Shown one piece after another: positions 1 to 21,991 of a DNA stretch of 41,633 nt (position 1 is its first letter; each line of letters begins with the position of its first letter). Location: positions 1-41,633 of the forward strand of contig JAGPCY010000020.1 in the NCBI GenBank assembly GCA_018057825.1, read 5' to 3'. A program made the position numbers and the translations under genes. The notes beneath the pieces are model-generated. The model made no database searches, was not told where the DNA came from, and saw only the letters and a program-made list of their open reading frames with translations. The stretch is from Kofleriaceae bacterium (GTDB lineage: Bacteria > Myxococcota_A > Polyangia > Haliangiales > Haliangiaceae).

Positions 1-63
1 CTTGAACTCTGGCTTGAAGGTTCGCCGCCGACGCGGCAGCTTGGAAGGAGACGAAGTGCTCAT
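1..63 (-). CDS. Possible 5'-partial hypothetical protein; only the N-terminal 21 codons (MSTSSPSKLPRRRRTFKPEFK...) fall in the window
   Basis: ATG at 63-61 on the minus strand with GAGG about 9 nt upstream; reading frame stays open to the window edge. Too short to assess. Confidence 0.15.
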   Translation of the reverse strand, partial: MSTSSPSKLPRRRRTFKPEFK

Positions 64-471
64 GGATGCCTCGCTCATCTTGACGGTGGTCGGATGGCGG
101 GTGTCCAGAAAATCGGGGCAGGCTCAGAGACCTGCGAGACATGTCGCGATGTTCACCCGAGCGGGGTGATTGCAAGACCGGTGGCGCTGTGGCGAAGCTA
201 GGATAGGTCGGAATCCGACGGATTCGCAGACCGGTCACTGTCACTGCGCTCAGGAGGTCGTTGTCATGGTCGTCCGCTCGACGCTGCCCGTGGTCCCGGT
301 GAGCCCCGCGAAGGGAACGCCAGCAGCGCCGTGTGGCGCTGCATCTGCGGCGACCCGTCGACGGTCGCGACCGGCGTGGGGCACGCCCAGGCGCGGCTCG
401 CGCCCGTAGCGAAGCACCCACGAGAGCGACGAACCCGAGACACATTCGCGGCAGGCGTACCAGGAGGCGAC

Positions 472-2778
472 ATGCGCGACTTCGACGATCCGAGGAAGCA
501 GGGGCACAACCCCGAAGCGGCAAGCGGCGGCAAACCCGGCGTCAAGACGCGCGTCGAGTCGCGCTACGGCGGGGTCCAGCGAGCCCGGGCCCCGTCCCCG
601 ACCTATGGGCACCTGTCCCTCGTCCCCGGTCCGGTGATGCCTGAGAACGTCTTCGACACCTTCGCGCTCCACCTCGACCCGGTGCAGCGGGTCGCCGAGG
701 CCACCGCCCTCGGCCTCACGGATCCGGCCGCCGTTCACGCCGCGGCGGCCCGCGGCACCTCCGGCCCCGCCACCACCCTGCCTCACGCCGACGCCATCCA
801 GCGCTCGTTCGGACCCGACCACGACGTCTCCGGCATCCAGGCCCACGTCGGCGGCGCCGCCGCCACCGCCGCGACCGCCATCGGCGCCCGGGCCTACGCC
901 ACCGGCAACCGCGTCGCCTTCGCCAGCGCCCCCGACCTCCACACCGCCGCCCACGAGGCCGCCCACATCGTGCAGCAGCGCGGCGGCGTCCAGCTCGCCG
1001 GCGGCGTCGGCCAGGCCGGCGATCCCTACGAACAACACGCCGACGCCGTCGCCGACGCCGTCGTCGCCGGCCGCTCGGCCGCCGAGCTGCTCACGGGCGG
1101 ACGCAGCGGCGGCGCCACCGATGCGGTCCAGCGCAAGCCAGAGCCTGAGGTCCCCAGCCGCGGACACGACGACCCGGGGAATCGCAACAACGCCTGCGCT
1201 GTCGATGGGGCGCACGCCCCCAACGCGATCGAAGGCATCCAGCTGTACCTTACGGTCGAGGACCGACTGAACGGCCTCGCAACGCGCACCCTCAACTACT
1301 CGGAGATGGGACCTGGCATCGCCGGCCCATACAAACTCTTTGCGCACACGAAGGACGACCTTATCGTCTACTATGTTGCTCACCACGTGGAGCGACAGCA
1401 AAACGAGTGGGTGATCGGTCCCGCCAGCGCGGCGCTGTTCGCGTCGACCGTCGAGCTGTACGCGGGCTCGGCCGCGCAGTTGCTCCCGGGGAGCGCCAGG
1501 GTACCGGGCAGCCAGGCCGATGGTGCCGACCAGGTCAACGACCCGGACTCCGTGGTCAAGCAAGAGGCCCTCGGTCGGGCTCCATGGCAGGTCGCCGCCG
1601 ACGGGCTCGCCGGGGCGTCAGATGCTGTCGGCGACCACACCAGCGGCGGTGGTCTCCTCAACTTCGCTCGGAATTCGCGAATTCGACTCGCAAACTACGT
1701 GCGGCCTGCACAGGAGCTCGCGGAGCAGCTCGCCGCCGATGTCGCCGCTGGAAGAGTCGACCATCTCGAAGCAAGAAGACAAGCGGTGGAGGGGCGCAAC
1801 GCGCTCCTGCTCGATACCAGGCGCCGACAGTCGCCAGCCGCCAGCTATGCGTCGAAGGCCCTAAAGGAGGATCGCGGAAAGTCTGAGTCTGAGATGACCA
1901 GAAAGAAGGTCATCGACAATCTCGAGGACTATCGCGCTTCTGAGGCGACGCGGGCCGTCCTCGACGCCGACTCAGAGCTTTGGGGCAGATACGCCGAGGC
2001 CATGAGCAACGGCGAGGACGTCCTCAAGGACGCGCTTCGCGACCTTGGCCAGAGCCCCGCTGTCTCGCGCTCCATCGTTCAGAGTGCGGGCAAGACGAAC
2101 AAGGCCTTCACGCGTATCGCGCGATGGGGCGGCCCGGTCGGTCTCGCGATCGGATCTCTCGGCGCCGCGGACATGGTCCAGGACATCCGGGACCAGATCG
2201 AAGCTGATAACTGGCACGCCGCCGCCCGCGAGCTGGCCGGATTCGCGGGCGGCGTTGTCGGCGGTGAGCTAGGGGCGATGGGTGCTGTGTGGATTGCGTC
2301 CGCCATCGTGCCAGGGAGTGCCGGCGTCGTGATCGTGGCCTCCATCATCGGTGGCGCTATTGGCGGCCACCTAGGCGCTTCGGGTGGTGAGCGTGCGACG
2401 GACCTCATCGCCAGTGGACTTGCGCCCGGGCTGGTGACCCCTCTGGTATCCGCCGGGGGCTTGGCAGGTGCACACGACAAGGATCGAGCGCGCACCATTG
2501 CGAACCAGATCAAGGACGTCATCTTCAAGGCCGATGGGGACCTTGCCAAGCTCGCTGCGACGATCCCTGCCGCCAGCAGCCGTCGTGAACTCGTGGCTCT
2601 GCAGCGAAAGCGGCTGGAGGTCCTAGCCCGTCGACAGCAGTTGGAGGACTTGCTGACGGCCCTCCGGCTCGGAGCGTTCGAGGGCCCGGACGACTGTGCC
2701 GCACCGCCACCCGCGCCCGCGGCGTCGCAGGCGTGCGACAACTCCGACAACGATTGCGACTCAGAGGTCGGCTGGTGA
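472..2778 (+). CDS. DUF4157 (zincin-like HExxH) domain protein with a long helical C-terminal region and a glycine-zipper hydrophobic segment; polymorphic-toxin-like
   Basis: AGGAGG 7 nt upstream of ATG 472. DUF4157 signature ...GIQAHVGG...[15 protein letters not shown]...[14 protein letters not shown]-terminal segment [47 protein letters not shown] resembles the hydrophobic hairpin of pore-forming toxins. High GC3 in frame. The stop overlaps the next start (GTGA). Confidence 0.7.
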
Positions 2779-3236
2779 ACCTCCGCGTTCTCGCCCGCCG
2801 GACCCGCGACTCTGCCACGGTGTGGATCTGGGACTGGTTCGCATCGTTCATGCTTCTGGTGCTAGCCATCGTCGTCTTTGTGCTGCTCCGAGGCCAACAG
2901 CACCTTGGCTGGTGGATGCTGCCGGCTGCTGCAGCGTGCCTCGTCACCCGACGCCTTAGCGTCTCGCGAGAAGATCCCGTCACGGGCCAGGCTTGGACCT
3001 TCTGGTTCGTCATCCCCGTGCAGCGACAAAGCTTCGCCATCCGGGACTTGGTTGCGTCTCACTCCGACGACTGGGCTGCAGACGCACGCGATGCCCGCGA
3101 CGAACTACGCGCTGGCTCCTGGTCCTTGGTGTGCCGCGACGCCTCGTCCGTGGCGACGTGGCTTCGCGACCGCAGCGCGGAGCTGGCCACGCCTCGAGCA
3201 AGTGTCTCTTCGGCTCCCAAGTTGAAGGAGCCCTGA
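2775..3236 (+). CDS. Small integral membrane protein (2-3 TM helices); candidate immunity protein for the upstream toxin-like gene
   Basis: GTG 2775 overlaps the TGA of the upstream gene (GTGA coupling). TM segments [23 protein letters not shown] and [14 protein letters not shown]. Same frame as track ORF 2733..3236. Confidence 0.45.
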
Positions 3237-3259
3237 CGAGTTGGCCGGTTGTTAGGTGG

Positions 3260-3661
3260 TTACACGATACTGCGACAACAGTGCGGTCCCACGCGGCTCC
3301 GTGCTCCTCGGCTCGCTCCGGCAGGCTGGGGCAACACACAGCGAAATCCGCCCGGCATGTCGAGGAACACATGATCGCGGTTGCTGATGGTCTTGGCATC
3401 GAGCCATCCGCCGCGCCGCACGCCGCACCGCCGGCCGTCGCAGCGTTGGCCGTCGGCGAGCGGGACCTCGGGATCGACGCAGACGCCGCTGCTGCAGGCC
3501 GGGGCGCGCGTGAAGCCATCGAGCACCCACTCGTACTCGTTCCCGCCCATGTCCATCGCGCCCACCGGGGAGCGATCGCCGGGATAGCTCCCGCGGCCTT
3601 CCCGCGCTGCGGTTACTCGACCGGCCGCTGGGTTGTCCGGTGGAGGTTTACCTCGACCCGT
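3260..3661 (-). pseudogene. Truncated C-terminal fragment (about 85 aa) of an FGE-sulfatase (SUMF1/DUF323) domain; no N-terminal half and no start codon
   Basis: Translation ...GSYPGDRSPVGAMDMGGNEYEWVLDGF...RRGGWLDAKTISNRDHVFLDMPGGFRCV matches the conserved C-terminal FGE-domain motifs (DMxGNVWEW, RGGSW, GFRCV). Upstream in frame the similarity stops and a stop codon lies at 3716-3718. No other minus-strand frame continues the domain. Confidence 0.4.
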
Positions 3662-4521
3662 CGCTGGCCGAGTCGGTCTGCCCGCTCGCAGCGTCGACCG
3701 ACGCGGCCGGCAAGATCACGTTCATCATCCCGACGACGGATCTGCGCAGCGGGTTCGACGTCACGAGCGTGAGCGACGAGAACGGCGTCCCTGGGTTCGG
3801 GCCAATTCGAGCGAAGGACCTCGCCGCACTCCAGCGAACGATCGTCGATGCTGTCAAGCAGAGCGCCTCCACGTCGGCCTTGGTGATGGTGCCGGAGTTC
3901 GCGACCGCGCCGGAGGTCGACGACGAACTCGACCTCATGCACAACAAGACTGGGATCGGGAAGATCGAGGTGCTGGTGGGCGGCTCGGCGTGGCGGGCCC
4001 CGGAGGGCGGGGCGACCCTTGGAAGAAACCGGGCGACGACCTGGCCCCGCGGCCGGGGCGCCCACCACCACGACAAGTACTCGTGGTTCAGCTCCAAGGA
4101 GGGGCAGGAGAACATCCAGCGTGGCTTCCCCCGCATCACGATCCTGGCGGGACCGCGGACCTCCTACACCGTGCTTATCTGCCGCGACTCCCTCGAGCCT
4201 CATGTGCCCGAATTGCTACAGGATTTGCGACTGAGGCTCGTGCTAATTCCGTCGTGCAACCCCGACGTGGGTCCATATAAGGGACGAGCGGTCTCGCTGG
4301 CGGAGCTTGGAGGAGCCACCGTCATCGTCGCCAACTTGCCACCCAACCCGGCGCCATTGTTGGAGTATGGCCTGGTGGTTCGGCCCGCGCGTCCCATGCA
4401 AGAGGGGCGCAGCGCTCAGCCAGAGACCCTCGTTATTTCGGGTCTCTACGCGCCGCGGTTCCAGGTTGACGTCCGCCAGCCTGAAGCGTTCTCGATTGAC
4501 AGAACTGTTCGGCGATCGTAG
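3640..4521 (+). CDS. Carbon-nitrogen hydrolase (nitrilase superfamily)-like protein, divergent
   Basis: Putative catalytic triad contexts LVMVPEF (Glu), HHHDKYSWF (Lys), TVLICRDSLEP (Cys). GC3 is high for the first roughly 200 codons, then base composition becomes AT-richer and codon usage atypical towards the 3' end. Confidence 0.45.
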   Translation: MEVYLDPSLAESVCPLAASTDAAGKITFIIPTTDLRSGFDVTSVSDENGVPGFGPIRAKDLAALQRTIVDAVKQSASTSALVMVPEFATAPEVDDELDLMHNKTGIGKIEVLVGGSAWRAPEGGATLGRNRATTWPRGRGAHHHDKYSWFSSKEGQENIQRGFPRITILAGPRTSYTVLICRDSLEPHVPELLQDLRLRLVLIPSCNPDVGPYKGRAVSLAELGGATVIVANLPPNPAPLLEYGLVVRPARPMQEGRSAQPETLVISGLYAPRFQVDVRQPEAFSIDRTVRRS

Positions 4522-4530
4522 AACAGTCAT

Positions 4531-4863
4531 ATGAAGTCTCCAGCCAACGCCGTGCTGACCCGTCAGGTTGGCGAAGTGGCGGGAGAAGCTGACCAGGGGC
4601 TGGCCGGCAAGCTCGCTTGTCTCGCCGACGCCAAACCCGGCAACGACGCGGAGCGATGTGCGCGCGAGGTGTTGACGTGGCTGATGACGGGCGTGGAGCT
4701 AGCAAAGGCTGCGCGAGCGCAGAGCCCAACGCTTCACGGGAGCGGCGACGCGGCCGAGCCCGAGGCCGAAGCCCCCCATGTCCAGCGCAGGGAGCAACCT
4801 CATCCCGCACGACGCAGACATGGCCCGGTCGTTTCCGTGCAACTCGATCTCTGCATTCGCTGA
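4531..4863 (+). CDS. Hypothetical small protein (110 aa)
   Basis: ATG-initiated ORF filling the gap between flanking genes; mixed codon usage, no recognisable motif. Confidence 0.2.
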   Translation: MKSPANAVLTRQVGEVAGEADQGLAGKLACLADAKPGNDAERCAREVLTWLMTGVELAKAARAQSPTLHGSGDAAEPEAEAPHVQRREQPHPARRRHGPVVSVQLDLCIR

Positions 4864-4901
4864 CATCTCGGCGCTCGATCACTCTAGGCGGAGGGTCTCC
4901 A

Positions 4902-5621
4902 ATGCCTGCCATCGACTTTGTCTTGAAGCGTCTTTCGCTGACCTCGACTCGCGACGAGCTGCGCACCGTCGCGTATGCGCTTGGGGAGTGGCTGGTCGCG
5001 CGCGACGAGTCTGCCTTGAGCGCGAGCTACGATCGCTTGCGGGAGCTGCGCGGCGCCGCGCCGGCTGATTCGGCGTCGCGCGCGAGCTTCGATGTGCTGA
5101 CCAACCTGCTCGAAGGATACTTCGCCTCGGCCGAGAGCGTCCGCCGCGTCGAGCGCATGCAGCGCGAGGTGGAGGCCGAGCCGATCTGGCGAGCCGTGAT
5201 GCAGTGTCTCGCGAGCGAGCCGGCAAACCAGGACCTGTTGTGCCAGCGAGTTGGTCGCGCAAAGTCGACCGTGTCGGTCGTCTGCGAGGATCTTCGACAG
5301 CGTGAGCTGATCGAGCTCGTGCCGAACGCGAGCCGGCGCGAGAACGTCCATGCGCTGACGCGCCTGGGCAAGCAGGTGCTCGCGAGCCTGCCAGCCGAGG
5401 CCCCCAGCGCCGCCGCGTCGTCTGTCGCGACCGCCCAGCCGACCGTCGCGGCCCCGGCCGCGACCAGTGTGCGTCCGGCGAAGGCGACCGGTCCTCGGGC
5501 GCGGCCAGAGCGCGCGTCCGGAACGACGGCATCGACGTCGCGGAAGACGTCGTCGTCGAGTGATCTCGCCCGGCTGACGAGGGGCGGCCACCGGGGGCGG
5601 CGACCGCGGCACCCGTGGTAG
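4902..5621 (+). CDS. Winged-helix (MarR/ArsR-like) DNA-binding protein with an Ala/Ser/Thr-rich tail
   Basis: GGAGGG 6 nt upstream of ATG 4902. wHTH-like segment STVSVVCEDLRQRELIELVPNASRRENVHALTRLGKQVL. Ends 12 nt before the McrB-like gene. Confidence 0.55.
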   Translation: MPAIDFVLKRLSLTSTRDELRTVAYALGEWLVARDESALSASYDRLRELRGAAPADSASRASFDVLTNLLEGYFASAESVRRVERMQREVEAEPIWRAVMQCLASEPANQDLLCQRVGRAKSTVSVVCEDLRQRELIELVPNASRRENVHALTRLGKQVLASLPAEAPSAAASSVATAQPTVAAPAATSVRPAKATGPRARPERASGTTASTSRKTSSSSDLARLTRGGHRGRRPRHPW

Positions 5622-5632
5622 CGTTTCCGCCG

Positions 5633-8533
5633 ATGAACATGACCTTCGCGGACGCAGCGGAGCTGGTGTTGCGGGAGGCGGGGGAGGCGCTGATGGTGGC
5701 GGAGCTGTGGCGGCGGATCGAGGCGCGGGGGCTGGTGGAGACGGCGGGGGCGACGCCGGAGCAGACGCTGCGGGTGATGCTGTTGCGGCAGGCGGCGGGG
5801 TCGTCGCTGGCGGCGGGGAAGGGGACGCCGCGCTTCTATCGGCGGGGCGACGGCGCGTACGGGTTGTGGGCGGAGCTGGCGCCGGCGCAGCAGCAGGCGA
5901 TGGCGGAGGACGCGAGCGTGGCGGCGAAGCGCGTCCGGGTGCGCGACTTTGCGGCGGACCGCGAGGGGATGCGCGCAGACCCGACGGTGGCGGAGCGCAC
6001 GCTGGGGTGGCTGATCCCGGCGGATGGTCCACGGCGGGTGGTGGCGGAGCTCCTGGCCGTCGCGATCGAGGACGCCCACGCCGCCGGGGCCCACCGCTGG
6101 AAGCTGACGCTGGGACCGCGGTCCCTGCGCGTGACGGTGGGGCGTTGTCTGGTCTTGTGGATCGAGCGGCGGGTGTGGTTCCCGGTCCGGCTGGCGTCCT
6201 TGATGGCCGAGGATCGCGCGCTCATCGAGGGCCTCGGCGTCCAGGACACCGAGACCGGTCCGTTTCGCTCGATCGCGCCGGTCGAGTTCTTCACGATCGC
6301 GCCCGAGCTGGTGAGTGAGGCCGCAGAGGCGATCCGCCGCGCGATCGCGCCGATCATCACCGAGGCGGCGGTGGGGACGGCCGATGTCCATGGCGCGAAG
6401 TTCCACTCGCCGGGAGCGCTCACGTTTCTGTCCCAGGTGGTCGGGCGCGCGCTGCCGACGCCAGCCTACGGCGGGCACACCGAGGACGAGGCGCCGGAGG
6501 ACGACCCGGACGGCGACGCGCCGTCGCTGGCGGAGCTGGTGACCGAGTACATCGAGACCTTCGCGACCTTGCCGACGACCCAGGCCTACCTGGCGACCTA
6601 CGCGGCCGAGCGCGCCGCGGCCCGCGCCAACCTCGCGCGCATCGATGAGCTGCAGTCGCGAGGACAGGACGCGACTGACGCGATCCTCCTGGGCCTCCTG
6701 CCGCACACCGACTCGGCCAAGCATCGTCAGGTCGGCGCGTGGGTATCCCACGCCCCGGCGATCCAGGGCGACCTGAAGCTGTGGTTCGAGAACGCGAAGT
6801 GGGTGACGCCCGAGACTTGGCCCCAGGTCGCGGCCGAGCTGCTGGCGTTCGTGCGCGCGTGCCTGGCCAAGCCCCACGATGTGCGCGACGCGATCGCGCG
6901 GTTCACCGCGAGCCCGTGGTCCAAGGGCCTCGGGGTCGGCATGCTGACGCCGATCTTGAACGCGCTGGCGCCCGAGGACTTCCCGCTGGTGAACGCCAAG
7001 GTCGCGCGGGTGGTCGGCTACTTCAGCGGGGTCGAGGTCGAGGCGAGCTTCGCCGGGTACCCGACCGCGGTGCGGCTGTGGCGGACGCTGGTCGACGCGC
7101 AGGCTGGGCTGGGCGATCCGCGCCTCGGGGTCAGCCCGGGGGACGCCTTCGATCACTTCTGCCACTGGCTGGTGGCGGTCAAGCGCTTCGGGTTCGTCGG
7201 CGGTGTGGTGGCCGGCGTCGGCTACTGGAAGATCTCGCCGGGGCCGGGCGCCGAGCGCTGGGACGACTGGCGGACCCGGGGCGTCGCGGCGATCGGCGGC
7301 GAGCTGCTCGGCGACCTGACGCTGGTCGACGATGACGAGTTCGCGGCGCGGGTGGCGGACGCCGCGGCCCAGGACCCGAGCTACAAGATGAACGGGGCCC
7401 GGCAGTCGCTGCATCTGGCGCGGATGGCGATTGGGACGCTGCTGATCGCCAACCGCGGCAAGAATGAGGTGCTGGGGCTGGGCCGGGTCACCGGGCCGTA
7501 TCGCTTCGTCGAAGGGGTCGAGTACTGCCACGAGGTGCCGGTCGAGTGGTTCGACACGACCCCGCGCGCGGTCGAGCGCCCGGGCTGGGCGCGGACCCTG
7601 GTGCAGCTCGACAAGACGACGTACGACGACATCGCGGCCTTGCCGCCCCTCGAGCCCGCGATGGGCCCTGGGCCTGAGCCGCTCCCGGTGCCGCGCTTCG
7701 ATCGCGGACACTTCTTGGCGCAGACCGGCTTCACCGAGGCCACGGCCGACCGATGGTTCCGCATCCTGCAAGAGCGCAAGCAGCTCGTCATCCAGGGGCC
7801 GCCCGGAACCGGCAAGACCTGGGTCGCCGAGCGCCTGGCGCGCTGGTTGGTCGGCGGCGACGAGGCCCGCATCCACCTGGTGCAGTTCCACCCGGCGTAC
7901 AGCTACGAGGACTTCATCGAGGGCATCCGGCCGGTGTCGCGCGGCGCGGCGCTCAGCTACGAGCGCGTTCCGGGCTACCTCATGCAGCTCTGTCAGGTGA
8001 TGCCGCGACAGGGGCCGGTGGTCCTCATCATCGACGAGATCAACCGCGCCAACCTGCCGCGGGTGTTCGGTGAGCTGATGTACCTCCTCGAGTATCGCGA
8101 TCGGACCGTGCGGCTCGCCGGCGGTGGCGAGCTGGGCCTCCCGCTCAATCTCCATCTGATCGGGACGATGAACACCGCGGACCGATCGATCGCGCGGCTC
8201 GATCACGCCTTGCGCCGCCGCTTTGCGTTCCTCCGACTGCCGCCGGACTTCGAGGTCCTGCGCCGGTTCGCCGCGACGCACTGGTCGGAGCCGGTGGACG
8301 CGCTGATCGGGGTGCTCGAGGCGATCAACCGCGACATCGACAACCCCGACGGCCACCTCGGCATCTCCTACTTCATGAAGGAGGATCTGGCCGACCGCCT
8401 CGAGGACATCTGGCGCTGCGAGATCGAGCCGTACCTCGAGGAGCTGTTCTTCGACGACCGCGCGACGGCGGCCAAGTACACCTGGGACAAGCTGGCGGGC
8501 GGAGCGCTGGCGGGCTGGGTCGACGAGGCGTGA
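5633..8533 (+). CDS. mcrB: McrB-family AAA+ GTPase with a roughly 700-aa N-terminal extension that begins with a HARE-HTH domain
   Basis: McrB motifs: GPPGTGKTW (Walker A), FHPAYSYEDFIEG, LIIDEINRANLPRVFGEL (Walker B), IGTMNTADRS (NxxD GTP specificity), ALRRRFAF. N-terminus MTFADAAELVLREAGEALMVAELWRRIEARGL...TPEQTLRVML matches the HARE-HTH pattern. High GC3. Track ORF starts at GTG 5615; ATG 5633 chosen. Confidence 0.85.
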   Translation: MNMTFADAAELVLREAGEALMVAELWRRIEARGLVETAGATPEQTLRVMLLRQAAGSSLAAGKGTPRFYRRGDGAYGLWAELAPAQQQAMAEDASVAAKRVRVRDFAADREGMRADPTVAERTLGWLIPADGPRRVVAELLAVAIEDAHAAGAHRWKLTLGPRSLRVTVGRCLVLWIERRVWFPVRLASLMAEDRALIEGLGVQDTETGPFRSIAPVEFFTIAPELVSEAAEAIRRAIAPIITEAAVGTADVHGAKFHSPGALTFLSQVVGRALPTPAYGGHTEDEAPEDDPDGDAPSLAELVTEYIETFATLPTTQAYLATYAAERAAARANLARIDELQSRGQDATDAILLGLLPHTDSAKHRQVGAWVSHAPAIQGDLKLWFENAKWVTPETWPQVAAELLAFVRACLAKPHDVRDAIARFTASPWSKGLGVGMLTPILNALAPEDFPLVNAKVARVVGYFSGVEVEASFAGYPTAVRLWRTLVDAQAGLGDPRLGVSPGDAFDHFCHWLVAVKRFGFVGGVVAGVGYWKISPGPGAERWDDWRTRGVAAIGGELLGDLTLVDDDEFAARVADAAAQDPSYKMNGARQSLHLARMAIGTLLIANRGKNEVLGLGRVTGPYRFVEGVEYCHEVPVEWFDTTPRAVERPGWARTLVQLDKTTYDDIAALPPLEPAMGPGPEPLPVPRFDRGHFLAQTGFTEATADRWFRILQERKQLVIQGPPGTGKTWVAERLARWLVGGDEARIHLVQFHPAYSYEDFIEGIRPVSRGAALSYERVPGYLMQLCQVMPRQGPVVLIIDEINRANLPRVFGELMYLLEYRDRTVRLAGGGELGLPLNLHLIGTMNTADRSIARLDHALRRRFAFLRLPPDFEVLRRFAATHWSEPVDALIGVLEAINRDIDNPDGHLGISYFMKEDLADRLEDIWRCEIEPYLEELFFDDRATAAKYTWDKLAGGALAGWVDEA

Positions 8534-9708
8534 CGGTCCTCGACCTGACCGAGTGGAGCTGGGCGCCGCTCGGCGACGACGGCGCGGCGATCGCTGCGGC
8601 GGTCCGCGCGAGTCAGGTGCGGGGCCTCGAGGTCGCACCGCCGGACCCGTTGGCCGGCGAGCCGTGGCGACTGCGGTCGACTGGCCTGGTGGGCTACCTG
8701 CCCCTCGGCGCGGGGCTGCCGGCGCTTCGGATCGCGCCGAAGGTTCCGATCGCCAGCCTGGTGATGCTGCTCGAGCGGGCCTACGATCTCGGCAGCCTGC
8801 GGTGGCAACCGGGCGTCACGGCCGCGGCCACGATCGAGGGCCTGTACGACGTGCTGCTCGGACGGTTGTGTGAGCTGGTCGGGGCGCGGCTTCGCCGTGG
8901 GCTGTATCGCGCCTACGTCGAGACCCAGGACGAGCTGGTGATGCTGCGCGGAAGGCTCGCGGTCCCCGAGACGCTCGGTCGAGCGGCGCGCGGCAGCGTC
9001 CGGCTGGTGTGCGACTTCGAGGAGCTGACCGAGGATCTCGACGACAACCGCCTGATCCTGTGGACCCTCGAGCGCGCGCGGCGGGTCGGCCTCGGGCGAC
9101 CGTCCACCCGCGCCGCGGTCCGCGCGCACCATCGGTCGCTGTCCGGGGCGGTGACCCTGACGTCCTTCGCGGGCGCGGCGTGCGAGGGCCGCGCGTACCA
9201 CCGCCTGAACGCCGACTACCGGCCCATCCACGCGCTGTGTCGGGCGGTGCTCGATGCCTGCGGCGAGGCGGCCGCCGGTGGCCCGGCCGACGCGGTGCCG
9301 TTCACCGTCGACATGCCGCGGCTGTTCGAGCGCTTCGCGGCGCGCTGGCTGGCCGCCGAGCTGGCGCCGTGGCGCGTCGAGGCCCAGCATCCGTTCTCCC
9401 TCGATGCCGATCTCTCGTACTCCATCGATGTCGTGGTGCGCGACCCAAACACCCGTCGCGCCGTCGCGGTCCTCGACACCAAGTACAAGGACGCCGTGCG
9501 CCCGGCGCCGGCCGATGTGCAGCAGGTCGTGTTCTACGCCACCGTGCTCGGCTGCACCGACGCCTGGCTCTGGTACCCGCGCGCGGTCCCTCATCGCACG
9601 GTCACCGCGGGCGGCGTGCGGGTCCACACCTGCGGGCTCGATCTGGCGCGACCGGCGACCTGGCCGGCGGTGATCCCGGCGCTCGCGCGGACGCTGGCGG
9701 CGGCGTGA
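8530..9708 (+). CDS. mcrC: McrC-like PD-(D/E)xK nuclease subunit
   Basis: GTG 8530 overlaps the McrB stop (GTGA). C-terminal SIDVVVRD...AVLDTKYK matches the McrC (I/V)xDxKYK nuclease motif. Confidence 0.75.
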   Translation: MTVLDLTEWSWAPLGDDGAAIAAAVRASQVRGLEVAPPDPLAGEPWRLRSTGLVGYLPLGAGLPALRIAPKVPIASLVMLLERAYDLGSLRWQPGVTAAATIEGLYDVLLGRLCELVGARLRRGLYRAYVETQDELVMLRGRLAVPETLGRAARGSVRLVCDFEELTEDLDDNRLILWTLERARRVGLGRPSTRAAVRAHHRSLSGAVTLTSFAGAACEGRAYHRLNADYRPIHALCRAVLDACGEAAAGGPADAVPFTVDMPRLFERFAARWLAAELAPWRVEAQHPFSLDADLSYSIDVVVRDPNTRRAVAVLDTKYKDAVRPAPADVQQVVFYATVLGCTDAWLWYPRAVPHRTVTAGGVRVHTCGLDLARPATWPAVIPALARTLAAA

Positions 9709-9788
9709 GGAGCGATGCGCGTGCGACGGCGCTGGAGAGGTCACGCCGACGTCGACGGGGCGGGGACCATCAGCAACATCGTCAAGCC

Positions 9789-9920
9789 ATGACCCGAATC
9801 GTCGTGCTCATCGCGATGATCGTAGGGTGCGGCAAGGGAGCCTCTGAGATGCCTACGTCTACAGCCGGAAACACGGCCGCCAACGTCGCAGCGGCCACGC
9901 CCTCGAGCGCGGCGCGGTGA
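9789..9920 (+). CDS. Putative small lipoprotein (43 aa)
   Basis: MTRIVVLIAMIVGCGKGAS signal peptide with a lipobox-like IVGC. No clear RBS. Confidence 0.3.
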   Translation: MTRIVVLIAMIVGCGKGASEMPTSTAGNTAANVAAATPSSAAR

Positions 9921-10062
9921 CGCCGTGATCGATCGGCGGAGTCTCGTTGTCGCTCGGCAGGTTCATCGCGGCACGTAGCTCATGGCGGTGCGATGGGCGC
10001 TGTCGGCGTGGGTGGCGCGCGGGAGCAGCGTACGGCTGACAGACCGCGGTATCCTCGCGGCC

Positions 10063-10332
10063 ATGAGGCAAACACTGTTGGTCGTCGTGCTTTTCGCCGC
10101 GTGTGGTGGGCCGCGCTCGACGGCGCCGGGTGGGGGCACGGCGGGGGGTGGGGATGGCAGCGGTTCGGCGACGACGGGGGGCGAGGGCGCGATCTGTGCG
10201 GTGGGCGCCCAGAACCAGGATCCGAACGCTCAGGCGGTGGCCTGCGCCGAGGGGCTCGAGTGCTGCTACCCGTGCGGCATCGAGGGCTGCGACTCGGTGT
10301 GCATGAAGGACTGCGGACCGCCGCGACCCTAG
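10063..10332 (+). CDS. Small Cys-rich lipoprotein (89 aa)
   Basis: MRQTLLVVVLFAACGG lipoprotein signal (lipobox FAAC), Gly-rich linker, then 10 Cys in 45 aa (CAVGAQ...CAEGLECCYPCGIEGCDSVCMKDC). Confidence 0.45.
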   Translation: MRQTLLVVVLFAACGGPRSTAPGGGTAGGGDGSGSATTGGEGAICAVGAQNQDPNAQAVACAEGLECCYPCGIEGCDSVCMKDCGPPRP

Positions 10333-10588
10333 GGTATCGTGAGGGGCCCGGTCGGCGGCGCAGGTTGCGCGAGCTGGGTGCCGTCGGGGGCGACCTCGAC
10401 GTTCGAAGCGCTGCAGACGCTGCGTGGCGAACAGATGCTGGAGGTCCGTGCGACGGTCGAGGAGCTCACGGCGCTGGCCTCGGACAGGAGGACGATGTGA
10501 AATAGCAGCGCCCTGGCCCGGCGGAAGGCCCGACCGCGGCGCGTTCGCCCTTGCTGTCCCATCACGTCTATTCGTCAGGGGCCCCTCC

Positions 10589-13500
10589 GTGACCACGATC
10601 AAGCAGCTCGCCGACCAGCGCGGTGTCAAGGTCACCGACGTGAAGCAGGTGCTGCGCAAGGCCTTCGCCGGCAACGAGTTCAAGTCGCCCGACTACTCGC
10701 TGTCGCCGGCGGAGGTCGCCGCGGTGATGGAGGGACTCCCGGCGCAGCTCGCCGCCCGCCGCGCGGCGCCGCGGGACGTCGCGGTCGAGCGGATCGCGGT
10801 GCCGCTCTTGGGCTGCGACGGGGTGCCGATCTCGGCGTCGACGGCGAGCCCGGCGATGCCGCAGGCCGGGGGCCGGGTGCGCCTGCTGCTCCACGGCGAC
10901 GTGATCGACTTCCTCGAGCGTGGGCGCGGCGAGGACCGGCCGCGGCAAGCGGCGGTGCAGCGCCTCCTGCGCGGGATGCTGGTCGAGGGGCGCGCGCAGC
11001 GCAGCGTGAAGGGCACGGTGGGCGTCAACCGGGGCTGGCTCCGCGCGCCGATCGGCGACAACGGCGGCTCGCACTACTACCTGTGGCACGCGCTGGCGGG
11101 CACGCCGTGTGTGGCCGCGCTCGCGCTGGGCAGGGATGAGGTCGTGGTGCGGGCGATCCGCCACCACGACGACACCAAGGTGGCGATCTCGGTGGGCGCG
11201 CGCGAGGACTACGTCGTCCTCGACGCCAGCGACTACGTGAGCCAGGTCGAGGCGGGCACCAAGGCCGCCGACTCGCTGTCCGACCCGCAGCGTCAGGCCT
11301 TCGACGCCGGCAGCTCGGTGACGATCACCAAGGGCCATCCCGGGGCGGGCAAGACCACGCTCCAGCTCGAGCGCACGCGCCGCCACGCCGGGCGGATCCT
11401 GTTTCAGACCTTCGGCGCCGCGCAGTGCGCGCAGGGGCGGCGCTGGCTCGAGACCTACGCGCCGCGCGGGCAGGTGGCGCGGGCCCTCACCCACGGCGAG
11501 GTCCTGGCCGCGCTGGCCCCGGGCCTTCCGGTGGCGCCGCCCCTCGAGCAGGCGGTGCGGTACCTGCGCCGCGCGCTCGCCCACGAGCCTCGGCTCGGCC
11601 CGTGGCGCGACCGGTGGACCGCGCTCCACGCCGAGCTGCGGGCCTGGTACTGGGGGCGGGCGCTGCCGGTCGACTTCCGCGGGGTCGACGCGATCGGCGC
11701 GGCCGCGACCGACGACGACCTCGAGCGCGGCTACCGGCGGCGACGGGACGGGGCCCTGCCGGCCGATGGGATCGACGCGGTGGTCGTGGCGGCGCGCGCG
11801 CTGTCGGCGGAGGACCGCGCGCACCTGTTCGGCGACCTCGAGGGCGCCCGGGCGGTGGCGGAGGCGCTCCTCGGCGGGGCCGATCTCCCAGCGGAGCTCC
11901 GCGACCTCGAGGCGATCTTCATCGACGAGGTCCAGGACCTGACCCTGGTCGAGGCCCTGGTCAATGTGCTGGTGGCCCGTCGCCCGGCCGCGTCGACCGG
12001 CTGTCGGCCGGCCTTCCACGTCGCTGGCGACGAAGGCCAGACCGTGCGCGCGACCGACTTCGCCTGGGGTGAGCTGAAGGACCTCATCCACGACGCGCTC
12101 GGGACCCCGACCGAGGTCGAGCTTCCGGGGAACCTGCGCTCGCCGCGGGTGATCACGCAGATCATCAACAACTCGTGGGCGCTGTACCAGGTGCTCGACA
12201 AGGGCGATCGGCCGCGGGGCGCCAGCACGGCCGAGGTCACCGAGGCGGCGATCGGCACGGTCTTGTGGGTCGACGCGGGTGGGTCGGAGGATGACGCAAC
12301 CGATGGGCCAGAGGGCGGGCCCGACGGCGGGTTGCGCGAGGTGTTCGCGGCGGCCGCCGGCCACGGCGCGACGATCCTGTATCCGGACGTGTTCGTGCCC
12401 GACGAGCTGCAGGCGCTGGCGCGAGCGACCAAGGCGACCGTGCAGGCGGCGCCCGACGCCAAGGGCCTCGACTTCCGCGTGGCCTTCGTGCTCGACGTCG
12501 GCCGACGGGCCCACGACCTGGCGACCCGACGCGGCGCGGCGCGCGACGGCGTGGCGGCGATCGAGACCCGGCTGGCGGTCGACGCGATCCGGGTCGCGCT
12601 GTCGCGCGCGACCGAGACGCTGGTCCTGGTCGAGCGCCCGCTGGCGGGGCAGGCCGAGGCGCAGCTCCGGCAGTTGTGCCAGGGCACCGACGGCCGCTTG
12701 CTCGACGGCGTCGTGACCGTGGAGCGCGGTGAGCTGGCGTCGCGCCTCGACGTCGACACCCACGATCGGGTCGAGATCGCGTCGGCGGCCCTCGAGGAGT
12801 TCGACGCGGTGGCCGGCGACGATCCGCGGCGCGCGCTCCGGGTGATGGCGCGGGCCCGCGGCTGGCTGGGCGAGACCTCGCGGGCCGGCGCGGTGCAAGG
12901 CGAGCTGCGGCGCAAGGTCTACCGGGCCCACGGCCTCGCGCTCCTGCAGGCGGCGGTGAGCTTCGCCGAGGACCGCGAGGCCCGGCTCACCCAGGCCAAC
13001 CGCGAGCTGTCGCTCGGCAAGGAGCACGAGCTGTCGCGCCTGGCCCTCGAGGTGCGCGACGCGATCGCGAGCACCGACACGCTCAAGCCGGCGGTCGCGC
13101 GCGCCACCGAGCTCGTGCGGGGCCAGCCCGAGCACGCGCGGCTCGGGTGGGCGCTCCTCGAGCTCGTCCTCGCCGAGGTCGCGCAGCGCGCCGACGCGTT
13201 CGAGCTGCGCGACTGGGACCGCGTGGTGAAGGCGCTGGAGCTGCTCGGCGGCGCTGGCGAAGCTACGCGCAACGCGGCGAGTCAGCGGTCGCAGCTCGGG
13301 CAGCGCGCCGTCACCTGGGCCGTCGCGCAGGGGCCGGGGAAGGCGACGACGACCATGGCGGTCGCGGCCCTGGCGATGATCGAGGCACCGTCGGCGATCC
13401 TGCGCGCGCAGCTCGCGGAGCGTCGCGAGGCCTGGGACGAGGCGATCTCACTCTACGACGAGGCCGGGCTGCCCCTCGAGGCCCTGCGCGTCGCCCGCGA

Positions 13501-18809: not shown

Positions 18810-19811
18810 TCAGCGACGCGGCGCGATGCGGACCAGCTCGAAGGCCTCGGGCGTGGTGCGCGGGATGTAGACGTGACCATCGCCGTCCACCTGCCACGCG
18901 GGCAAGCTGGCGAGCTGACCACGGAGCGCGCCGGTCGCGGCCGGCGCGAGTTCGGGGAGGTCGGCGAGGGACATCCGGCTCTTGAGTTCGCCTGCGAACC
19001 CGACGCGGAGGATGTGGTCGTCGAGCCGCGTGTAGTAGTCGCCGCGCGCGTCGACGCCGAACAGATAGACCAGGGCCTGGGGCAGGCCGGCCGGCGCGCT
19101 GACCTTGCCGTCGGTGGCGGCGGTGAGCAGGTCGAGCGGGATCGCCGCGCCGCGATTGGCCGCTAGCGCCAGGCGCGAGCCCGGCGCGATCGCGATCGCC
19201 TCGCCGACCTGGCCCGTGCTGGCATCGAGTGGAACGAGCGCGTTACCGCTGCCCTGGCGCACCAGGTACAGCCGACCGCGGACGTCTGGGACCAGCCGCA
19301 CGTAGCGACTTCCGTCAGGCCCCGCGAGCGGGAGGCCACGGGCGACGCCATCGCGGGTGGCGACGATCAGCTGCGCCCGCGTGCTGGAGACGGTCTCGAG
19401 GACGACCAGGCGACCGTCGGCGTCGATCGCGATGTCGACGGCGGTCAGGGCCGGTCGATCGGCGACGAACGGGTCGCGGGCGCGGTGCCAGGTGACGTCG
19501 CCCTGGCGCACCGTTGCCCAGGTGAGATCGTCGGTGGCGGCGAAGCGCCCGTCGACGTACGCGAGCACGCCGATCGTGCCGTCGGCCGCGAGCCGGACCA
19601 GGGGTGGCGCCGGGCTCTGCCAGGTCGTCATCCCAGCGACGTCGCCTACGGCCGGCTGCGTCACGAGGGTGCGCGGCAGCTCGCCGCCCCAGGGGACACG
19701 AGCGACGATCTCCAGCGAGGGGCGTTCCATTCGATCGGCCTTTCCCGAGGTAGCGCCGCAGCCGGCGGCGAGCCCGGTGATGACGGCGAGCGCGAGCGTA
19801 GCGGAGCGCAC
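18810..19811 (-). CDS. Secreted/lipoprotein-like hypothetical protein (about 333 aa); candidate immunity partner of the upstream DUF4157 toxin-like gene
   Basis: GTG 19811 lies 2 nt after the TAG of the upstream gene. N-terminus MRSATLALAVITGLAAGCG (signal peptide, lipobox-like). High GC3. Confidence 0.5.
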   Translation of the reverse strand: MRSATLALAVITGLAAGCGATSGKADRMERPSLEIVARVPWGGELPRTLVTQPAVGDVAGMTTWQSPAPPLVRLAADGTIGVLAYVDGRFAATDDLTWATVRQGDVTWHRARDPFVADRPALTAVDIAIDADGRLVVLETVSSTRAQLIVATRDGVARGLPLAGPDGSRYVRLVPDVRGRLYLVRQGSGNALVPLDASTGQVGEAIAIAPGSRLALAANRGAAIPLDLLTAATDGKVSAPAGLPQALVYLFGVDARGDYYTRLDDHILRVGFAGELKSRMSLADLPELAPAATGALRGQLASLPAWQVDGDGHVYIPRTTPEAFELVRIAPRR

Positions 19812-19813
19812 GA

Positions 19814-21991
19814 CTAGGACCAGCGCGCCGACCAGAACAAGATCGGCCGACCGTCCGAGACCTGCGCCAGGGCCTCGATGGTGGTCCGCTCGACGTGGCG
19901 GTTGTTGGGGGTCCACAGGCTGATGACCTCGGCGTGCGTGTCACCGGTGAGCTGATCGACGACGGTATTGCCGGTCGCGATGCAGGCGTGGTTGGGCGCG
20001 TTCTCGAACACGACGATATCGCCCCGCAGCGGTCGTGGCGAGTTGGGGTCGCCTAGTCGGTAGGTCACCGGGTTGCTGCCACGGCACTGGTCCTCGAACG
20101 TCAGGCCGACCGAGAAGTGCGTGCCGTCCCGAACCCGCTGAACCGCGAGTTGGTAGATCTGGCGCAGGCGTTGCTCGCTGACGACGCCGGCTTGGAACGC
20201 GCCGAACATCACCAGCTCCCAGCAGTTCATTCGCCCGTTGTGCGGATCGGGCTGGGCCTGGGCGGCGAGGAGCCACTGACTGAAGTCGTCGGCGAGCAGC
20301 ATCGGGTCTTGGGCGACCAGCCCGCTGTTGTACTGCGCCCAGTTGAGGCCGCCGACCAGCCCTTCGGCGCCACCCGCCGCGCCCGACTGCGCTAGCGCCC
20401 GCTGCATGTAGGTCGCGCCCTGGGCGGTCATGTCGACTGCCTGCCCTTGCTGGAGATCGCGGAGCGCGAGGCGCAACGCGAGGAGCGCGTGGGCCTCGGT
20501 GTAGGTCGGTGCACCGTAGGCGTTGCGCAGCGGCTGGAACTCGGCGAGGGCGCGGACCTGATCATCGGTGAGGCGGCCCGGATCATTGGCGGCGTTGGTG
20601 GCGTCGGCGTAGGTCTGGAGCGTCGGGCCCTGAGGCGCGCGGTTTCGTGAGCAGCGCTGGAGCTGGAGACCGGTGCGCCACGGATCGCTCGCGGGAGCGC
20701 GGGCGGCCGTGGTCGCGACCGCGCGGTCGGCGTGGTCCTCGGCGGTCGCGTCCTCGGGCCCGATCGGCCGTCGGCGGGCCACCGGGTCGGCGGCCGCGTC
20801 GGCCTGCTGCGCGACGTGAGCCAGCTCGTGGGCGACGAGCGCGTCGCCCTCGAGAGAACCGGCCGCGGGCGCGGCGGCGCCCATGACGATGTTGGTGCCG
20901 ACGGTGAACGCCACGGCGTCGGCGGCGTCGGCCAGGCGCGCTGCGACGGGACCGGTGTGGATCCGGGCGTCGGGGACGGCGCTGCCGAGCGCGTCGCGCA
21001 GCCGGCTCGCCGTGGCGCCGTCGACGGCATGGCCTGGGCCGAGCTCGCGTTCGAGCGACGCCAGGGACGCGCCGCCGTCGGGGCCGCGCAGGGCGTTGGC
21101 CTCGGGCGCAGCCGCGGTGGGGGCGCCGCCGTCGAGGCTGGCGAGCTCAGGCGGTGGGTCGCCGGTGTCGCGCCAGTGCCGGACGCCGGCGCGGACCCGC
21201 TCTACCACGATCGGGATGATCGCCGCGGCAGAGGTCGCGGTGCGCACGCTCGGCGCAAACCGGCGAAGCAGCGCCTCGCCGTCCGCGGCGGAGCGGGTGG
21301 CGTAGCGGCCGAAGTACTGCTCGATGTACGGACAGCCGATCGCGCTGTAGATCGGCCCCAGCTCGGCGTCGGCGGCCTCCGTGACCTGGGCGCGCAGCGT
21401 CGCGAGGAAGACGTCCTTGATCATCTGCCCCGGCTGCGGCGGCCCAACGTCGACCAGGAGGCTGCGCGGCGGTCCGCCGCTGGTCACCTCGGCCGCGACC
21501 TGATCCGCCTCGTGCTCGGCTGGGCTGTCGGAGGCGCCGACCGTGACCGCGCGCGCGACGGCGCGCTGGCCGGCCGCGCCTTGTTGGGCGACGTGGGTCA
21601 GCTCATGAGCCATGAGCCCGAGATCGTCGCCGCGCTCGCCGGGCCCGAGGAAGACGTCGCCTCCGTAGGCGAAGGCGCGGGCGCCCATGGCCTGGGTCGC
21701 CTGCCGCGACAGGGGATCGTCGTGGACGCGCACGCCGGTGAGGTCGACGCCGAGGTGCCCGCCGACCCGCGCGGCGACCGCGCCGTCGACTGTTCCGCCG
21801 CTGCCCTTGTGGTCGACAGCCGCGGTCGCGGCGTCGTGGATCGACGCGTCGGCGCGATCGCCCATGGCTTGGGCCAACGCCGGGTAGCGCGCCGCCAGCC
21901 GCGAGCGCCGTCCGGGCGCGATAGTGCCGGTCCCCGCACTGCCCTCCGCCGTCGTCGTCGCCGTCGTCGCCGTCGAGGGATCCCGTTCCAT
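19814..21991 (-). CDS. Tandem DUF4157 (x2) protein with a C-terminal Cys/His domain; polymorphic-toxin-like (candidate papain-like or transglutaminase-like effector)
   Basis: Two copies of the DUF4157 signature: GVRVHDDPLSRQATQAMGARAFAYGGDVFLGPG...LMAHELTHVAQQ and DARIHTGPVAARLADAADAVAFTVGTNIVMG...LVAHELAHVAQQ. C-terminal ...NGRMNCWELVMFGAF...NAPNHACIATG offers a candidate Cys/His pair. Alternative ATG at 21865. Confidence 0.8.
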   Translation of the reverse strand: MERDPSTATTATTTAEGSAGTGTIAPGRRSRLAARYPALAQAMGDRADASIHDAATAAVDHKGSGGTVDGAVAARVGGHLGVDLTGVRVHDDPLSRQATQAMGARAFAYGGDVFLGPGERGDDLGLMAHELTHVAQQGAAGQRAVARAVTVGASDSPAEHEADQVAAEVTSGGPPRSLLVDVGPPQPGQMIKDVFLATLRAQVTEAADAELGPIYSAIGCPYIEQYFGRYATRSAADGEALLRRFAPSVRTATSAAAIIPIVVERVRAGVRHWRDTGDPPPELASLDGGAPTAAAPEANALRGPDGGASLASLERELGPGHAVDGATASRLRDALGSAVPDARIHTGPVAARLADAADAVAFTVGTNIVMGAAAPAAGSLEGDALVAHELAHVAQQADAAADPVARRRPIGPEDATAEDHADRAVATTAARAPASDPWRTGLQLQRCSRNRAPQGPTLQTYADATNAANDPGRLTDDQVRALAEFQPLRNAYGAPTYTEAHALLALRLALRDLQQGQAVDMTAQGATYMQRALAQSGAAGGAEGLVGGLNWAQYNSGLVAQDPMLLADDFSQWLLAAQAQPDPHNGRMNCWELVMFGAFQAGVVSEQRLRQIYQLAVQRVRDGTHFSVGLTFEDQCRGSNPVTYRLGDPNSPRPLRGDIVVFENAPNHACIATGNTVVDQLTGDTHAEVISLWTPNNRHVERTTIEALAQVSDGRPILFWSARWS

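Follow-up and report, generated by a model that had tools for sequence, protein, structure and literature searches.

Near the start of a 41,633-nt stretch of DNA from a Kofleriaceae bacterium (GenBank assembly GCA_018057825.1, contig JAGPCY010000020.1, positions 1 to 41,633; the whole stretch is here called the window), two overlapping genes encode a protein of 768 residues with an N-terminal DUF4157 domain and a small membrane protein of 153 residues. The pair is described here as a candidate toxin of the type carried by contractile injection systems (CIS), including the extracellular ones (eCIS), together with its candidate immunity protein (Table 1). The start of the larger open reading frame (ORF) is called at position 472 by JGI and at position 637 by NCBI. 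The first is preferred because an AGGAGG Shine-Dalgarno sequence precedes it and because the GC content at third codon positions (GC3) is 0.87 for positions 472 to 636, against 0.77 (0.66 at second positions) for the in-frame upstream stretch 331 to 471. The stop codon is overlapped by the GTG (2775 to 2777) of the smaller ORF, which confirms the GTGA coupling seen in an initial annotation of this DNA. Scans of the upstream region and the operon for promoters, terminators and Rfam families found nothing; the gene begins about 470 nt from the contig end, and the known upstream sequence amounts to only about 2.6 kb.

Table 1. Positions of the gene pair, its modules and neighboring features in the window
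Feature	Position	Strand	Basis or remarks
Shine-Dalgarno sequence AGGAGG	462-467	+	4 nt 5' of the ATG at 472; read from the sequence
Candidate toxin ORF	472..2778	+	768 aa
N-terminal region, aa 1-109	472..798	+	Predicted disordered; rich in Pro, Gly and charged residues
DUF4157/eCIS_core domain, aa 110-172	799..987	+	Pfam PF13699; HEAAH
Beta module, aa 240-392	1189..1647	+	Small sheet and helix; AlphaFold2 model, local hidden Markov model matches
Helical domain of the candidate toxin core, aa 393-552	1648..2127	+	AlphaFold2 model; conservation in 90 of 161 fetched proteins
Glycine-zipper region, aa 553-672	2128..2487	+	Hydropathy, GxxxG motifs, AlphaFold2 helices, conservation
C-terminal coiled-coil pair (aa 676-732), Cys/acidic tail and stop codon (2776-2778)	2488..2778	+	AlphaFold2 model; homologue consensus
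Candidate immunity gene	2775..3236	+	153 aa; GTGA overlap with the stop codon of the candidate toxin ORF
Small ORF	3260-3565	-	101 aa
ORF	3640-4521	+	293 aa
mcrBC restriction module	5615-9708	+	MarR-like winged-helix ORF (4902-5621) just upstream
ORF next after the second eCIS_core gene	18810-19916	-	
Second eCIS_core gene	19814-21991	-	725 aa; two DUF4157 copies

The N-terminal part of the 768-residue protein has the layout of injection-system cargo. Its DUF4157 domain, named already in the initial annotation, matches PF13699 with an E value of 8.2e-12 and 45.6 bits, against a gathering cut-off of 22, over profile positions 11 to 78 of 79, and the HExxH motif reads HEAAH at residues 161 to 165 (nucleotides 952 to 966), followed by IVQQ. 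Two surveys document DUF4157 as a marker of eCIS effectors and place it N-terminally, with the toxin domain at the C terminus, in eCIS-associated toxins (EATs) (PMC8213781, PMC11297309). The second survey reports the domain in 36% of known effectors versus 0.06% of other proteins, and finds no annotated toxin (second) domain in 983 of 1,130 predicted DUF4157 effectors (PMC11297309). In front of the domain, the predicted local distance difference test score (pLDDT) of AlphaFold2 is below 50 over residues 1 to 123, where the alignment holds little beyond the query sequence itself; residues 1 to 109 are a candidate cargo-loading sequence. Cgo1 and Cgo2, which are cargo of AlgoCIS, start with a disordered loading sequence, continue with DUF4157 and end in a C-terminal domain that varies; of these, the N-terminal sequence is needed for loading and DUF4157 is dispensable (bioRxiv 10.64898/2026.05.27.728243). 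The modules of the 768-residue protein (disordered N terminus, DUF4157, ordered C-terminal domain) follow an identical order. The EAT layout, with a disordered N-terminal signal, DUF4157 and a C-terminal effector domain, is thus present, on an alignment that is shallow at the N terminus.

Among 69 long members of the family described below, 14 carry a short motif, PGKRT[LR]T, some 25 to 30 residues behind the start, whether or not they have DUF4157 (P0005 to P0009, P0014, P0015, P0021, P0031, P0033 to P0035, P0084 and P0088; P and L numbers denote fetched proteins and loci). A degenerate copy lies at residues 19 to 33 of the 768-residue protein and aligns with the GKRTxT motif column of the homologues. 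The motif may belong to a loading signal; the searchable literature gave no report of it.

Modules and family of the C-terminal part

A homologue search with residues 224 to 768 returned 16 proteins, mostly from Kofleriaceae assemblies, that are 39 to 63% identical from about residue 240 to the end; their N termini differ, and none has a recorded DUF4157. The profile of this alignment matched 352 of 1.84 billion cluster representatives at an E value of ≤1e-3 and 65 at ≤1e-30, and the family comprises about 350 clusters defined at 50% identity. Scanning 161 fetched proteins with four profiles sliced from the alignment resolved the C-terminal part into four separable modules. A further search with the core alignment gave only 18 proteins, apparently being swamped by glycine-rich words, and scans of genome and metagenome collections gave only three and two loci, respectively.

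The first module is a small sheet followed by a helix. The full-length AlphaFold2 model, made from 16 sequences, is poor overall (mean pLDDT, 55), with strands at residues 272 to 315 and a helix at 317 to 337 (together spanning 265 to 337) at a pLDDT of about 80 to 89. The module carries the motifs GPG.AGPY and EWV(I/L)GP and is also present, at times as tandem copies, in DUF4157 proteins without the membrane core for which eCIS_core is the only Pfam label (P0103, P0108, P0117, P0123 and P0152). The second and third modules form the core (residues 393 to 672), for which a model from 36 diverse sequences reached a mean pLDDT of 88.5 and a predicted template modeling score of 0.78. This model is all-helical, with twelve helices, and its last three long helices include a hairpin of two glycine-rich helices of about 32 residues each (residues 581 to 612 and 617 to 649; nucleotides 2212 to 2418), which is followed by the conserved motif GG(L/F/Y)AG.H.KD. 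The fourth profile covers residues 673 to 768, with helices predicted at 676 to 697 and 704 to 732 (pLDDT, 86 to 90). Residues 736 to 768 (2677 to 2775) form a tail with the consensus C..DDDCD.EV(G)W that occurs only in the closest full-length subfamily and might bind a metal or act as a recognition tag. The initial description of the C-terminal part as helical with a hydrophobic hairpin therefore holds for the core and its hairpin, but residues 265 to 315 are predicted to be beta and the part divides into four modules.

The Gly/Ala/Ile/Val segment on which that description was based spans residues 589 to 640, where 16 Gly, 10 Ala, 7 Val and 6 Ile occur in 52 residues, with eight GxxxG motifs and Kyte-Doolittle windows of up to 2.2. 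The segment is not a chance feature: it can be aligned in 90 of the 161 fetched proteins, and G593, G594, G597 and G601, like E587, are at least 90% conserved. Repeats of the form (G/A/S)xxxG lie inside predicted membrane-spanning helices, as in glycine-zipper membrane toxins, and the eight GxxxG motifs fall within residues 590 to 639.

A Foldseek search of the core against the PDB found nothing with an E value below 1 and no colicin among the matches listed, and phmmer and hmmsearch searches of PDB sequences with the whole protein and the family profile gave only a chance match to a complex I subunit (E value, 1.5). Pfam has no family for the core, the beta module or the small protein, and neither protein of the pair matches NCBIfam or PADLOC. 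A C-terminal domain belonging to a non-toxin structural family had been named at the outset as evidence that would speak against a toxin; these searches found no fold match, and no match to a toxin family either.

The proposed pair shares its logic with the pore-forming colicins, whose hydrophobic hairpin, destined for the inner membrane, is concealed in a soluble helical domain and which have a small immunity protein, integral to the membrane, encoded adjacently. The C-terminal domain might itself be a distant colicin-type pore-forming domain, in which ten helices form a bundle around a hydrophobic hairpin. The resemblance to colicins is superficial: an E.DNW motif directly precedes a hydrophobic helical hairpin of about 45 residues, this hairpin lies within a soluble helical domain, and a small membrane protein, for immunity, is encoded alongside. 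However, the Pfam Colicin family (PF01024) gave no match at E values of up to 0.1, and the profile search of PDB sequences returned nothing relevant. With no Foldseek match either, a colicin-type fold is unsupported and is regarded as highly improbable. The helical domain and the hairpin, which co-occur in 90 of the 161 fetched proteins, are an unannotated family without a Pfam model or a significant PDB fold match.

Fusion of the core to DUF4157 is frequent: at least 26 of the 161 proteins carry the DUF4157 signature HExxHxxQQ near the N terminus, and other members are stand-alone proteins of 230 to 400 residues, two of them with peptidoglycan-binding or SH3 domains. The two ends of the 768-residue protein match different partners. 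Residues 70 to 237 are 68% identical to a 617-residue protein of L004, 54% identical to a 715-residue protein of L019 and 56% identical to P0082; the first two have unrelated C termini, and P0082 is weakly similar (30%) in the helical domain. Residues 255 to 763 are 50% identical to P0020 and 39 to 63% identical to 15 proteins without DUF4157. The GC3 is 0.93 in the part encoding DUF4157, like that of the adjacent mcrB, and drops across the junction to about 0.75: the three C-terminal segments have 0.82, 0.72 and 0.80, and the small gene has 0.76. Since the N- and C-terminal parts match different proteins and GC3 steps at their junction, this junction shows polymorphic-toxin module swapping, with a conserved N-terminal trafficking part and interchangeable C-terminal modules. 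Three independent short-read assemblies of the locus (L010, L011 and L012) all begin at window positions of about 1027 to 1036, at the end of the DUF4157-coding part, which suggests that the DUF4157 segment exists in several near-identical genome copies that break assemblies.

The downstream small gene and its counterparts

The 153-residue protein has an Arg-rich N terminus, a strong hydrophobic helix at residues of about 17 to 39, a weaker one at about 45 to 60 and then a soluble domain of about 90 residues, in agreement with the small membrane protein initially proposed. The positive-inside rule would place both ends in the cytoplasm, an orientation that would suit the protection of a producer whose own cytoplasm is where the toxin is made. 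Homologues that begin with MN[LI]RV back the start at 2775. Homologues 27 to 57% identical lie directly 3' of, and overlapping, a toxin homologue in L002/L003, L004/L005, L007/L008 and L016, and in one of these four lineages the toxin is only 39% identical to the 768-residue protein. The profile of the small protein matches no other ORF in any fetched locus, and the protein has no match in Pfam, NCBIfam, PADLOC or PHROG.

A different small protein occupies the same position in L006, L015/L022 and L024. Each of these proteins has hydrophobic helices at the N terminus, in one pair or two, besides a soluble domain of about 90 residues. The small proteins of L015 and L006 are related to each other (hhalign E value, 5.7e-5), and hhalign found no relationship between the 153-residue family and the small proteins of L024, L015 and L006, for which no family match was obtained. 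In total, a small membrane-protein gene overlaps or abuts the end of the toxin gene in L002, L004, L006, L007, L015, L016 and L024 and belongs to at least two unrelated families. This diversity is typical of immunity proteins, and a small cognate gene directly downstream, in a position conserved across homologues, is what polymorphic toxins have. A constant position, coupled translation, a place in the membrane and turnover between families would be expected of immunity proteins against a membrane-acting toxin, and the 153-residue protein is read as a candidate of this kind.

Neighborhoods of the pair and of its relatives

Some DUF4157 relatives of the core are encoded inside or beside known systems. 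P0049 (520 residues, with DUF4157 and the core; L018) lies inside an injection-system cluster, after genes for Phage_T4_gp19, T4_baseplate, Pvc16_N and an AAA ATPase and before genes for Phage_base_V and GPW_gp25; searches of PDB sequences with the genes flanking P0049 found nothing. P0055 (DUF4157 and the core; L024) is followed by an overlapping 152-residue ORF with two hydrophobic helices and adjoins an eCIS_core-SsdA_C deaminase and Imm5 pair, near an Rhs gene. Further eCIS_core proteins are encoded nearby in L004 and L006, one of them (L006) fused to an AHH nuclease domain.

The location of P0049 also bears on a reading in which the protein is not itself a toxin but a translocon-like membrane-insertion cargo derived from a tape-measure protein and comparable to the Streptomyces proteins Tme and Sle1, with the small protein as a docking or assembly partner. 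The hairpin would then only anchor ejected cargo in a membrane or form a conduit. P0049 is encoded just upstream of spike and baseplate genes, the slot of Tme-like genes, and Tme combines DUF4157 with predicted transmembrane helices and coiled coils (PMC11126660); Sle1 has a transmembrane hairpin domain and a DUF4157 partner protein, relocates to lipid membranes and lacks an immunity gene. Tme and Sle1 are both described as CIS effectors related to tape-measure proteins. In addition, 26 of 36 core proteins match phrog_1047 ("tail associated lysin"), always at profile positions of about 770 to 910 of 1251, with a best E value of 1.7e-12 and one of 3.8e-5 for the 768-residue protein, and the tape-measure PHROGs 23574, 167 and 794 are each matched by three to six members. 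These matches are, however, weak and lie in a glycine-rich, compositionally biased region. A fold search of viral models (BFVD) gave nothing with an E value below 0.01, and a tblastn search with the core and the short relative P0143 found no match in 50,697 phage records, the low-complexity filter probably masking the glycine-rich part. Moreover, within the available sequence no injection-system cluster lies near the gene, which spreads together with its own small membrane gene as a two-gene cassette that has reached even an unrelated genome, and P0055 sits among classical toxin/immunity pairs. A cargo of this kind is therefore considered unlikely. It is a tentative and rather doubtful suggestion that residues 393 to 672 descended from a phage tape-measure or tail membrane-channel segment and were domesticated as a free-standing, immunity-paired, pore-forming CIS cargo toxin.

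The unrelated genome is that of a Candidatus Magasanikbacteria bacterium (L016, scaffold JACOYB010000004.1), where a toxin homologue (796 residues, 38% identical) and a homologous small membrane gene occupy positions 9374 to 12176. This insert of about 2.8 kb has 57% GC in a 41%-GC genome and lies between asnS and parA/parB. It looks as if the two-gene cassette, with nothing else, had recently been transferred horizontally to a bacterium of the candidate phyla radiation. Such a transfer is among the observations that would also fit a stand-alone abortive-infection or toxin-antitoxin module of a defense island, in which the large protein would insert its hairpin into its own cell's membrane on phage attack and the small protein would restrain it until then. 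The low GC3 marks the cassette as accessory DNA, and the McrB/McrC genes and a divergent regulator with a helix-turn-helix (HTH) and an M78 (ImmA/IrrE-type) domain are nearby; in L007/L008 the homologue has AIPR and GmrSD on its flanks, and L006 contains an Mrr gene. Toxin islands and defense islands commonly share variable regions, so the neighborhood does not discriminate between the two. Against a defense module, neither protein matches any of 5,027 PADLOC models (PADLOC-DB 2.0, E values of up to 0.01), the DUF4157 part is common to nuclease and deaminase toxins with immunity genes (AHH in L006, SsdA_C with Imm5 in L024), and one relative lies inside an injection-system cluster. A defense function is accordingly judged quite unlikely.

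The McrB-like GTPase of the window has 972 residues (HARE-HTH N terminus, AAA_5; NCBIfam McrB E value, 1e-41), and its gene overlaps that of McrC (PF10117; E value, 6e-29). The assembly L013 extends the known sequence upstream of the pair and holds, about 2 kb from the candidate toxin gene, the divergent gene for the HTH_3 and Peptidase_M78 protein (L013 positions 2 to 982, minus strand). A 202-residue ORF also lies upstream, and a noncoding gap of about 900 nt separates these from the candidate toxin gene. Regulators of the ImmA/IrrE type are common in mobile elements.

The GC content is about 0.65 to 0.68 across positions 1001 to 5000, against 0.70 to 0.80 in the rest of the window; the lower GC initially assigned to the first 4.9 kb does not extend to the first kilobase (0.71 to 0.73). 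The 293-residue ORF at 3640, initially taken for a decaying nitrilase-like gene, is intact in five independent assemblies and gave no match in Pfam, NCBIfam, PDB, PADLOC or PHROGs; its initial name is unsupported. The supposed truncated FGE-sulfatase fragment is the 101-residue ORF on the minus strand, with only a sub-threshold Pfam match (E value, 0.061).

The second eCIS_core gene of the window encodes a protein whose C-terminal region of about 200 residues has a Cys...His pattern (NCWELV ... NHACIATG) and no PDB match. The ORF that follows it has a hydrophobic stretch ending in a lipobox-like LAAGC, and its product may be a periplasmic immunity lipoprotein. Judged by domain content, the window holds two DUF4157 toxin candidates. 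In two Myxococcota-like loci (L019, positions 4297 to 12277, and L020, positions 2371 to 8094), genes for an extracytoplasmic function (ECF) sigma factor and a protein of about 950 residues, with a weak zf-HC2 and a CHAT domain in L020 and no recorded domain in L019, precede the DUF4157 and core genes and may be a dedicated regulatory module for these toxins. A stand-alone 236-residue relative of the helical domain is encoded in the cultured betaproteobacterium Rivihabitans pingtungensis (L025, QJKI01000007.1, positions 10001 to 11262), followed by an overlapping 184-residue ORF without hydrophobic helices, with PrkA/SpoVR and TonB/ExbBD as housekeeping neighbors. This organism may be tractable for studies of the helical domain.

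Proposed action of the pair and comparison with known systems

The pair is interpreted as a membrane-damaging cargo toxin of the eCIS/CIS type and its immunity protein, organized as in polymorphic toxins, with a probability of roughly 0.6. The cargo layout, the module swapping, the loci of relatives and the coupled membrane gene support the toxin/immunity interpretation that was first put forward; the delivery system looked for near the pair was not found. Several observations weigh against it. No sheath, tube, baseplate, spike or Pvc16 genes are present in the window or in the additional 2.1 kb upstream provided by L013, so that within the window and the roughly 2.6 kb of upstream sequence the gene is not within about ten genes of an eCIS operon, the distance by which EATs are defined (PMC8213781, PMC11297309). 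P0008, which is 57% identical to the C-terminal domain, is followed by an unrelated four-helix protein, which means that toxin and partner are not simply co-inherited, and the relatives with DUF4157 and the core in L018, L019 and L020 have no obvious small membrane gene downstream. Antiphage neighbors are frequent (McrBC here, AIPR and GmrSD in L007, Mrr in L006) and fit a defense role as well. Finally, the cassette is present in the Magasanikbacteria genome, and the small genomes of the candidate phyla radiation are not expected to encode an injection system.

As a cargo toxin, the protein would be targeted by its disordered N terminus, with or without the aid of DUF4157 (together residues 1 to 237), to a phage-tail-like particle whose genes lie at another site of the genome. 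Once ejected, the C-terminal core, a compact helical domain in the model, would be freed and would open, and the glycine-zipper hairpin would enter the cytoplasmic membrane of the target. Alone or as an oligomer, the hairpin might then leak ions and collapse the membrane potential. These last steps are proposed by analogy with the C-terminal domains of TelE and EsxX and with the ionophores of contact-dependent inhibition (CDI): glycine-zipper C-terminal domains are the toxic, membrane-depolarizing part of TelE and EsxX, and CDI ionophores have polymorphic immunity proteins (PMC10434224, PMC12744356, PMC11630599). The coupled 153-residue protein, in the inner membrane, would protect the producer and its kin, probably by binding or blocking the hairpin from the cytoplasmic side, either inside the membrane or at its surface. 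Loading into the particle, membrane insertion, depolarization and immunity are all predicted steps; the domain layout, the link of the family to DUF4157 and to injection-system or toxin loci, the module swapping and the conserved membrane partner are what the sequences show.

The known EATs, among them Cgo1 and Cgo2, share with the 768-residue protein a disordered N terminus, a DUF4157 domain with HExxH and a variable C-terminal effector domain, and relatives of its C-terminal domain occur, like EATs, inside or beside injection-system and toxin loci. In the accessible portions of the two surveys, the validated EATs are predicted enzymes, namely, ADP-ribosyltransferases, deaminases, nucleases, transglutaminases and TIR proteins (PMC8213781, PMC11297309), and many EATs have no identified immunity gene (PMC8213781). 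In contrast, the C-terminal domain described here is a nonenzymatic-looking helical domain with a predicted transmembrane hairpin, and the gene is not near a known injection-system operon and has a dedicated downstream membrane protein.

Tme of Streptomyces davawensis and Sle1/Sle2 of Streptomyces lividans are similar in having DUF4157 in cis (Tme) or in a partner protein (Sle1), membrane helices or a hairpin, coiled coils and weak profile similarity to phage tail or tape-measure proteins. Tme, however, has more than 2,000 residues, owes its toxicity to a C-terminal nuclease and is encoded inside a CIS cluster, whereas Sle1 lacks DUF4157 and an immunity gene and is likewise encoded inside a CIS cluster. 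Compared by description only, the protein of the window, at 768 residues, is an orphan with no enzymatic domain and with a small membrane partner; it does not occupy the Tme-like position inside a CIS cluster, which its relative P0049 does.

The T7SS (type VII secretion system) effectors TelE and EsxX and the CDI ionophores also have C-terminal GxxxG-rich membrane helices, an N-terminal trafficking domain and a polymorphic cognate immunity protein encoded directly downstream. They differ in trafficking, which proceeds via LXG or CdiA instead of DUF4157, and the domains of the CDI ionophores, predicted bundles of five helices, depend on a membrane protein as receptor; the core described here has about 280 residues and 12 helices. 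No sequence or fold relationship to this core is detectable. By this analogy, the pair would work most like the glycine-zipper effectors of T7SS and the CDI ionophores, combined with an injection-cargo trafficking module. The core would represent a new toxin-domain family in a known architecture, with tape-measure ancestry possible. In the literature searched, no DUF4157-linked membrane-hairpin toxin with a dedicated immunity gene is described, and the accessible text of PMC11297309 does not contain the words "pore-forming," "transmembrane" or "glycine."

The locus defines a recurrent, confidently modeled and unannotated C-terminal family that is likely membrane targeting, and its candidate immunity partner makes it a directly testable effector/immunity pair for injection systems. 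The core may also serve as a compact membrane-inserting payload for engineered particles. Should the pair prove to be a defense module instead, it would constitute a new abortive-infection system that acts on membranes. A tape-measure link, if it holds, would reveal how a segment of a phage DNA conduit became a toxin. A tape-measure-descended toxin core would, if true, be the first membrane-targeting effector class for contractile injection systems, with about 350 clusters absent from Pfam and PDB and in a cassette mobile enough to reach genomes of the candidate phyla radiation.

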